From Escherichia coli (GTDB lineage: Bacteria; Pseudomonadota; Gammaproteobacteria; Enterobacterales; Enterobacteriaceae), in the NCBI RefSeq assembly GCF_003334315.1, contig NZ_QOWR01000046.1: a stretch of 38,030 nt of DNA; one strand, 5' to 3'. Shown here in pieces: positions 1 through 38,030 of this stretch. The translations under genes were made by a program, and so were the position numbers. The notes below the pieces were generated by a model. That model searched no databases. It was not told where the DNA came from and saw only the letters and a program-made list of their open reading frames with translations. Numbering within the stretch: position 1 is the first letter of the stretch; the number at the start of each line of letters is the position of its first letter.

Positions 1-375
1 GACGAACAGTGGGGCTACGTCGGTGCTAAATCACGTCAGCGCTGGCTGTTTTACGCGTATGACAGGATACGGAGGACAGTTGTGGCGCACGTTTTCGGTG
101 AACGCACTATGGCGACGCTGGGGCGTCTTATGAGCCTGCTGTCACCCTTTGACGTGGTGATATGGATGACGGATGGCTGGCCGCTGTATGAATCCCGCCT
201 GAAGGGAAAGCTGCACGTAATCAGCAAGCGATATACGCAGCGAATTGAGCGGCATAACCTGAATCTGAGGCAGCACCTGGCACGGCTGGGACGGAAGTCG
301 CTGTCGTTCTCAAAATCGGTGGAGCTGCATGACAAAGTCATCGGGCATTATCTGAACATAAAACACTATCAATAA
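1..375 (+). CDS. insB: IS1 transposase InsB, C-terminal part (5' truncated by window edge)
   Basis: Open frame from base 1 to stop at 373-375; recognised InsB sequence; ORF track 82..375 is the same frame. Confidence 0.88.
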
Positions 376-390
376 GTTGGAGTCATTACC
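1..390 (+). mobile_element. IS1 insertion sequence, 3' portion (element begins upstream of the window); right terminal inverted repeat ends ...GGAGTCATTACC at 390
   Basis: Frame-1 translation from base 1 ([21 protein letters not shown]...HYLNIKHYQ*) is the C-terminal part of IS1 InsB; 379-390 is the characteristic IS1 end; flanking sequence switches abruptly to elaB. Confidence 0.9.
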
Positions 391-588
391 GTTGAGCTGA
401 AAGCGCGTGCAGAAAAAGCGCTGGATGATGTGAAAAAACGGGTTAGCCAGGCTTCAGACAGTTATTACTATCGGGCGAAGCAGGCAGTTTATCGTGCTGA
501 TGACTACGTCCACGAAAAACCCTGGCAAGGAATTGGTGTGGGCGCGGCCGTTGGGCTGGTACTAGGACTGTTGCTGGCACGCCGTTAA
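391..588 (+). pseudogene. elaB: elaB 3' fragment (ribosome-associated tail-anchored inner membrane protein), interrupted by IS1
   Basis: In-frame translation from 391 gives VELKARAEKALDDVKKRVSQASDSYYYRAKQAVYRADDYVHEKPWQGIGVGAAVGLVLGLLLARR*, the C-terminal ~65 residues of ElaB including its transmembrane anchor; no start codon or N-terminus. Confidence 0.8.
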
Positions 589-601
589 AACCTCCCTACA
601 C

Positions 602-632
602 CGGGGTACTGCATTTTTTTTGTAGTACCCCG
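602..632 (+). terminator. 12-bp stem hairpin with a T7 loop (cggggtactgca-ttttttt-tgtagtaccccg) downstream of elaB
   Basis: Inverted repeat read directly from the sequence, one G-U wobble; no U-tract after the stem, so intrinsic terminator function is uncertain. Confidence 0.35.
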
Positions 633-638
633 TATAAT
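633..638 (+). promoter_or_regulatory. Candidate -10 hexamer TATAAT upstream of menF
   Basis: Perfect TATAAT 29 nt upstream of the menF GTG start; -35 not confidently identified. Confidence 0.3.
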
Positions 639-666
639 GTGAGGCTTTTAACAGGGAGAGGTCCGC

Positions 667-1962
667 GTGCAATCACTTACTACGGCGCTGGAAAATCTAC
701 TGCGCCATTTGTCGCAAGAGATTCCGGCGACACCCGGCATTCGGGTTATCGATATTCCTTTCCCTCTCAAAGACGCTTTTGATGCCTTGAGCTGGCTGGC
801 CAGTCAGCAAACATACCCGCAATTCTACTGGCAACAACGTAATGGTGATGAAGAAGCTGTCGTCCTGGGCGCGATTACCCGTTTTACGTCGTTGGACCAG
901 GCACAACGTTTTCTTCGCCAGCACCCGGAACACGCCGACTTACGCATTTGGGGGCTGAATGCTTTTGACCCGTCGCAGGGCAATTTACTTTTACCCCGCC
1001 TGGAATGGCGACGCTGTGGCGGTAAAGCCACGCTGCGGCTGACGCTATTCAGCGAAAGCTCCCTTCAGCACGATGCGATTCAGGCAAAAGAATTTATCGC
1101 CACACTGGTGAGTATCAAGCCCTTGCCTGGGTTACATTTAACCACCACGCGAGAACAACACTGGCCGGACAAAACGGGCTGGACGCAATTAATCGAACTG
1201 GCAACGAAAACCATCGCCGAAGGTGAGCTCGACAAAGTGGTGCTCGCTCGGGCAACTGACCTGCATTTCGCAAGTCCGGTCAACGCGGCGGCGATGATGG
1301 CTGCCAGTCGTCGACTGAATCTGAATTGCTACCATTTTTACATGGCCTTTGATGGCGAAAATGCTTTTCTTGGCTCTTCACCGGAACGGTTATGGCGGCG
1401 GCGTGACAAAGCGCTGCGTACTGAAGCGCTGGCGGGAACAGTAGCAAATAATCCTGATGATAAGCAGGCGCAGCAGTTAGGAGAGTGGCTGATGGCGGAT
1501 GATAAAAACCAGCGCGAGAACATGCTGGTGGTGGAAGATATCTGTCAACGATTACAGGCCGATACCCAGACGCTGGATGTTTTACCGCCGCAGGTACTGC
1601 GTCTGCGTAAAGTGCAGCATCTTCGCCGCTGTATCTGGACTTCACTCAACAAAGCGGATGATGTGATCTGTTTACATCAGTTGCAGCCAACGGCAGCAGT
1701 TGCTGGCTTACCGCGCGATCTGGCGCGACAGTTTATCGCCCGTCACGAACCGTTCACCCGAGAATGGTACGCCGGTTCTGCGGGCTATCTCTCATTACAA
1801 CAAAGCGAATTCTGCGTTTCCCTGCGCTCAGCAAAAATTAGCGGCAATGTCGTGCGATTATATGCTGGCGCGGGCATTGTCCGTGGTTCCGACCCCGAGC
1901 AAGAGTGGCAGGAAATCGACAACAAAGCGGCAGGGCTGCGTACTTTATTACAAATGGAATAG
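667..1962 (+). CDS. menF: Isochorismate synthase (menaquinone-specific)
   Basis: 431-aa ORF, GTG start preceded by GGGAGAGG; chorismate-binding family sequence recognised as MenF. Confidence 0.93.
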
Positions 1963-33950: not shown

Positions 33951-34152
<202 letters not shown>

Positions 34153-37953: not shown

Positions 37954-38030
37954 TGGATTGGCCCCTATATTTCCATACACTTTTTATCACTTAACCCATT
38001 ACTGGTTCGCCGCCGCAGATATTCCCGTGG
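37954..38030 (-). mobile_element. Terminal inverted repeat and transposase 3' end of an IS2-group (IS3 family) insertion sequence, extending beyond the window
   Basis: tggattggcccctatatttcca...ttatcacttaacccattac...gccgcagatattcccgtgg resembles the IS2 end as I recall it (TGGATTTGCCCCTATATTTCCAGACA...); similar but not identical. Confidence 0.6.
37965..38030 (-). CDS. IS2-like transposase (OrfB / InsD-like) C-terminal end, 5' truncated by window edge
   Basis: Minus-strand translation ...PREYLRRRTSNGLSDKKCMEI* versus IS2 InsD C-terminus ...[21 protein letters not shown] (from memory). Confidence 0.55.
   Translation of the reverse strand, partial: PREYLRRRTSNGLSDKKCMEI

Follow-up and report, generated by a model that had tools for sequence, protein, structure and literature searches.

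ElaB is a C-tail-anchored member of the YqjD/ElaB/YgaM (DUF883) family. The protein resides in the inner membrane, and its gene is transcribed from an RpoS- and OxyR-dependent promoter with a start point 26 bp upstream of the ATG; deletion of elaB lowers both oxidative-stress resistance and long-term fitness (PMC6389858). For the paralogue YqjD, two elements are required for ribosome inactivation: the N-terminal part, whose truncation abolishes the activity; and the transmembrane segment, which is needed for dimerisation and without which inactivation is lost too (bioRxiv 10.1101/2024.08.16.608256).

Published hallmarks of the insertion sequence IS1 include a length of 768 bp and target duplications of 8-9 bp (PMC12428005). 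The features used here to assign an element to the IS1 family are an inverted repeat (about 23-30 bp) that terminates the element; an InsAB' transposase; a length of 768 bp with insA, insB', and an A6C -1 frameshift site; and a direct target-site duplication of 8-9 bp. IS1 can also act on its surroundings: its ends can make fusion promoters where the flanking DNA supplies a -10 element at the right distance (Prentki et al. 1986, as cited in PMC9330008).

These two subjects meet in a stretch of Escherichia coli DNA of 38,030 nucleotides (the window), which opens inside an IS1 element and passes at base 391 into elaB. The features that bear on the argument, all on the plus strand, are as follows.

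1-390, plus strand: IS1 3' half (element positions 379-768), by 390/390 identity to the 768-bp IS1 of strain W5-6.
1-375, plus strand: C-terminal coding part of the insB / InsAB' transposase, with stop codon TAA at 373-375, by NF033558 match and translation.
368-390, plus strand: IS1 right inverted repeat (IRR), 23 bp, ATCAATAAGTTGGAGTCATTACC, read directly and equal to the terminal bases of a full IS1 copy.
391-399, plus strand: duplicated 9-bp target site GTTGAGCTG, right-hand copy, in elaB codons 37-39; on public contig L012 this 9-mer stands directly before the IS1 left end.
391-588, plus strand: elaB' remnant, codons 37-101 plus stop, comprising the DUF883_C part and the C-terminal membrane anchor, by 100% identity to K-12 elaB and a match to positions 37-101 of 101 in NF007709.
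430-588, plus strand: putative, the sole conventional in-frame open reading frame (ORF) of the remnant, GTG start, 52 aa, from the ORF list.
602-632, plus strand: strong hairpin in the spacer between elaB and menF, with a stem of 12 bp and a U7 loop (580-670 folds at -36.2 kcal/mol, z = -4.05).
633-638, plus strand: perfect TATAAT, likely the -10 element of menF's own promoter, from a relaxed scan; the same in K-12.
667-1962, plus strand: menF, intact, encoding isochorismate synthase and leading the men operon, by NCBIfam NF011588 (positions 1-431 of 431, 935.7 bits) and the K-12 annotation.

Very probably, this arrangement reflects a simple transposition of IS1 into elaB, which yields an elaB null allele and leaves menF little affected. 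In the proposed event, an IS1 of 768 bp, belonging to a minority isoform that is present in multiple copies in this phylogroup-A-like lineage, would have transposed into elaB in the orientation shared by elaB and menF. The staggered cut would have spanned elaB nucleotides 109-117 (codons 37-39), and its repair would have placed a copy of GTTGAGCTG on both sides of the element.

The element is identified by its right-hand portion, since the window begins inside IS1 and shows nothing upstream. All 390 bases of window 1-390 match the complete IS1 of 768 bp found in E. coli W5-6 (L002:1123-1890), at its positions 379-768, and the IS1 part stops exactly at the right inverted repeat, ...GGAGTCATTACC, at base 390. 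This repeat contains an outward-facing -35-like hexamer, TTGGAG, at 377-382. Translation of window 1-372 matches the NCBIfam profile NF033558, 'IS1 family transposase', over positions 101-199 of 199 (E=2.9e-36; 125.3 bits against a cut-off of 100), so the window carries an above-threshold match to the C-terminal half of the InsAB' transposase only. Terminal inverted repeats of the kind expected for the family are seen at 368-390 and as a 28-nt left end on contig L012. The W5-6 copy of the identical isoform, 768 bp long, is annotated as 'IS1-like element IS1B family transposase, programmed frameshift'.

Compared with IS1 as described (IS1 family; K-12 copies IS1A-F), the element shares the terminal inverted repeat, the InsB/InsAB' C-terminal sequence, and the 9-bp target duplication. 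It differs in being a minority sequence isoform, for which relatives use the annotation 'IS1-like element IS1B family': of about 9,500 matching records, 289 have a copy with 99% identity or more over the 390 bp, and the best match is only 95-99% identical in 7,701 records. Among the closest relatives of the window this isoform is multi-copy, and IS1 copies number in the tens in the lineage (25-40 places are matched in the record of a relative, for example). As an aside, the insB stop codon (TAA, 373-375) is in frame with the elaB' remnant, with five codons (VGVIT) between them (window 373-399), so that stop-codon readthrough of InsB/InsAB' would add the ElaB membrane anchor to the transposase end. 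The shared frame, expected one time in three by chance, is probably a coincidence.

Beyond the inverted repeat, window 391-1000 is 100% identical to the elaB-menF region of K-12 MG1655. The sequence enters elaB at nucleotide 109 (base 391), where codon 37 (V37) begins, and 391-585 comprise exactly 65 codons (V37-R101), with the stop at 586-588. Relative to K-12 elaB (b2266), there is no difference in codons 37-101 or in the spacer that follows (100% identity), whereas codons 1-36, the ribosome-binding site, and the promoter have been cut off by IS1, making the gene a pseudogene here. Against the NCBIfam ElaB model, NF007709, the remnant aligns to positions 37-101 of 101 and scores 131.9 bits, short of the curated cut-off of 139; full-length ElaB, of about 101 aa with its N-terminal region, is thus not found in the window. 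What is kept is the C-terminal DUF883_C portion with the transmembrane anchor, ending in RR (...PWQGIGVGAAVGLVLGLLLARR).

These observations bear on the original prediction, which had IS1 ending at base 390 and truncating elaB to its 65 C-terminal codons at 391-588. Both statements are borne out, the first by 390/390 identity to IS1 followed by 100% identity to K-12 elaB, the second by the codon count; the comparison it proposed with elaB in reference genomes finds the K-12 gene intact and identical from codon 37 onward. Its junction is likewise right, but the boundary codon, put at about 38, is 37. It also described the remnant as lacking a promoter or start. The elaB promoter, ribosome-binding site, and ATG are indeed gone, but an in-frame GTG at 430 opens the 52-aa ORF, on which Pfam PF19029 was recorded. 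This GTG is preceded by a poor Shine-Dalgarno-like sequence, TGGATG, at a spacing of 2 nt. Expression of the 52-aa ORF is unlikely, and the predicted peptide would be without the ribosome-binding part.

Exact matches to the 52-aa sequence were also found on nine public contigs (L003-L011), on which elaB is called as two overlapping pieces, one N-terminal (48-52 aa) and one C-terminal (52 aa), with no insertion sequence between them. Many adjacent genes are fragmented too on two of them, L003 and L004. The split genes on all nine look like frameshift errors of noisy assemblies, not true alleles.

The left junction lies outside the window. Its product was predicted from a simple insertion with a 9-bp duplication, and was then looked up exactly. 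With GTTGAGCTG as the duplicated sequence, the prediction is 39 ElaB residues, eight residues (GDAANLLI) from the IS1 left end, and a stop, or 47 aa in all. Exactly this 47-aa product is on record, in two public read-assembly contigs; the corresponding products of an 8-bp or a 10-bp duplication, looked up in the same exact way, are absent from the record. The one contig that was read, L012 (Logan SRR3951468_146, 33 kb), ends ...AAATAT-GTTGAGCTG-GGTGATGCTGCC..., the last part being the IS1 left end. More fully, elaB sequence ...CAGAAATAT is followed by the 9 bp GTTGAGCTG and then by GGTGATGCTGCCAACTTACTGATTTAGT, with 28 of 28 bases matching the IS1 left end. K-12 has GTTGAGCTG once, at the empty site ...AAATATGTTGAGCTGAAAGCG....

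Over 10 kb, the flank on L012 shows 100% identity to the window's best-matching strains (cM2a, W5-6, Combat13F7, 1223, and WP3-S18-ESBL-07), which places the left junction in the same sublineage. A reciprocal junction with the same 9 bp indicates plain IS1 transposition with a 9-bp target duplication. The original prediction had named two things to look for, the far end of IS1 and a target-site duplication of 8-9 bp expected to match gttgagctg or adjacent bases. Both have now been located indirectly, the left junction with its copy of the duplication coming from another public sample of the same sublineage. We infer that the window's own genome carries the same left junction, and that IS1 positions 29-378 are ordinary, the element being complete.

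The same evidence weighs on a different reading, in which the window shows only one boundary of a larger IS1-associated structure: either IS1 mediated a deletion or inversion next to itself, following a simple insertion or in place of one, or the element is a composite transposon flanked by IS1. The 5' part of elaB and elaA would then not be found 768 bp upstream. Several circumstances lend it plausibility: the window starts inside IS1, with everything upstream unseen; IS1 makes adjacent deletions and inversions (Turlan and Chandler 1995, as cited in PMC9330008); tens of IS1 copies reside in this lineage; and the other end of the window also lies within an insertion sequence. However, the left junction with its identical 9-bp duplication, seen in two public samples of the same sublineage, is what an unrearranged simple insertion leaves behind, and the larger structure is improbable.

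The insertion is recent and lineage-restricted. This elaB insertion site is occupied in none of 5,426 complete RefSeq E. coli genomes: a search with the junction (window 330-450) gave no genuine match. Only one place reached a coverage of 80% or more, and there the alignment runs on by chance, at 89% identity, from a different IS1 site. An exact scan of JGI metagenome contigs with a 31-nt junction sequence gave no matches, and literature searches found neither a report of IS1 insertion in elaB nor anything relevant on run accession SRR3951468. The left junction, as noted, is present in two public read sets. This rarity could make the insertion a useful lineage marker.

A further alternative is an assembly artefact, through chimeric joining of an IS1 repeat read to an intact elaB locus. 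The junction is in no complete genome, and both ends of the window fall in repeated insertion sequences, as is typical for contig ends. Against this, the break coincides exactly with the last base of the IS1 right inverted repeat, and an independent assembly contains the reciprocal junction with the expected 9-bp duplication. A chimera would not mimic transposition chemistry, and an artefact is extremely unlikely.

With simple transposition as the preferred reading, the consequences for ElaB can be considered. The elaB reading frame is split, and the distal 65 codons are severed from the ATG and the ribosome-binding site as well as from the elaB promoter, which is under RpoS/OxyR control. The promoter-proximal part would encode the 47-aa product, predicted to have no membrane anchor. 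Because the anchor and the N-terminal part are separated, neither fragment should work, and the allele should be null, as the original prediction held. This conclusion draws on knowledge of the family; in particular, the requirement for the N-terminus is a YqjD result carried over to ElaB. Given the published ΔelaB phenotypes (PMC6389858), this strain is probably at a mild disadvantage in stationary phase and under stress, for which the paralogues YqjD and YgaM would partly make up. For annotation, elaB in this genome is a pseudogene split by IS1, and neither the 52-aa nor the 47-aa ORF is to be called a protein. The insertion is an ordinary strain-specific IS1 polymorphism, already known in kind, and it leaves knowledge of IS1, ElaB, and menaquinone synthesis unchanged.

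A second consequence might concern menF, which lies downstream in the direction in which IS1 reads; the original prediction had suggested that outward activity of IS1 could affect it. The 276 bp between the IS1 end and the menF start codon, a GTG, include the 78-bp elaB-menF spacer, which is the same as in K-12. menF retains its TATAAT box, ribosome-binding site (SD), and coding sequence. The hairpin at 602-632 directly adjoins the TATAAT (602-638), and the putative menF promoter would have its -35 position within the stem-loop; the hairpin could couple elaB transcription or termination to use of the menF promoter. It was rejected as a terminator, and as part of the insertion event: it has no U-tail, no canonical terminator was called, and the K-12 sequence is identical. 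Since the hairpin is not a canonical terminator, readthrough from elaB into menF is possible in the wild type.

An IS-borne fusion promoter would comprise a -35 in the IS end and a -10 in the flank at a spacing of 16-18 bp. For TTGGAG at 377-382, the hexamers at spacings of 15-19 bp match TATAAT at no more than three of six positions, and a consensus promoter scan of window 1-900 found no promoter-like site. The hybrid-promoter idea was rejected on these two grounds, lack of a spaced -10 and the empty scan. In comparison with the described IS1 fusion promoters of bla TEM-1 and acrEF (Prentki et al. 1986; Olliver et al. 2005; both as cited in PMC9330008), the same outward -35-like hexamer is present in the IS1 end, whereas the elaB flank lacks a correctly spaced -10, and the menF start is 276 bp away with signals of its own.

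It is conceivable, though very unlikely, that the insertion is regulatory all the same, with transcription from the IS1 right end, or reading through from the elaB promoter, altering expression of the elaB' tail (as the 52-aa peptide), of menF and the men operon, or of both. IS1 does read toward elaB' and menF; the hairpin between them is not a canonical terminator; the in-frame GTG ORF exists; and IS1 fusion promoters are documented elsewhere, as in the work of Prentki and colleagues just cited through PMC9330008. Yet TTGGAG has no partner at any of the spacings inspected, and nothing promoter-like was seen in 1-900. The GTG at 430 has a poor and badly spaced Shine-Dalgarno sequence, and menF has its own TATAAT and SD. 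IS1 insertions, moreover, are strongly polar, as known from the classical gal and lac work. Finally, native IS1 transcription is reported to be extremely low, issuing from a very weak promoter repressed by InsA (PMC12903888).

In view of the missing hybrid promoter, the very weak IS1 promoter, and the unchanged menF signals, the suggested effect on menF is not supported. Nor is a known upstream operator displaced, because SdiA, reported to control menFDHBCE in Salmonella and Enterobacter, did not regulate the E. coli reporter (PMC11619404). menF is probably little affected by the simple insertion; at most, judging from the arrangement of signals, readthrough from the elaB promoter would be lost or damped across IS1.

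The orientation of the element invites one further idea. IS1 lies in the sense direction 117 bp into elaB, and the ElaB'-IRL ORF stops about 28 nt before the insA start. Upstream readthrough raises IS1 transcription and transposition at other loci (PMC12428005). For a sense IS1 within an RpoS/OxyR-activated gene, readthrough transposase could thus be stress-responsive, and this copy might serve as a transposase source induced in stationary phase or under oxidative stress. The idea is doubtful. If true, it would tie IS1 bursts to stress in this IS-rich lineage, a modest extension of published work.

Other observations concern the remainder of the window. Its last 76-77 bases (37955-38030) match at 100% the terminus of an IS3-family element that other genomes annotate as ISEc36/ISEc27-like and that resembles IS2. 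This element has inserted into yfaL/ehaC, an autotransporter adhesin gene of 3,753 nt, at about nucleotide 814, and the yfaL/ehaC-IS junction is in no complete E. coli genome. That both ends of the window lie in lineage-specific IS insertions suggests a repeat-bounded contig, or a strain with recent IS expansion.

A related observation comes from several relatives (among H100-H110; for example, NZ_CP103694.1, 1514436-1538822). Compared with window 391-24000, these are about 777 bp longer over 23.6 kb and match in two pieces, while being otherwise 100% identical. The extra length is consistent with another IS1-sized insertion in the men-arn region, absent from the window, and points to IS activity at several sites of this neighbourhood.

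The window's sole Rfam match at the gathering threshold is naRNA4 (CssrE; 76.4 bits), in the nrdA-nrdB spacer at 34034-34104; it is presumably a REP/BIME-type repeat and not a specific gene.
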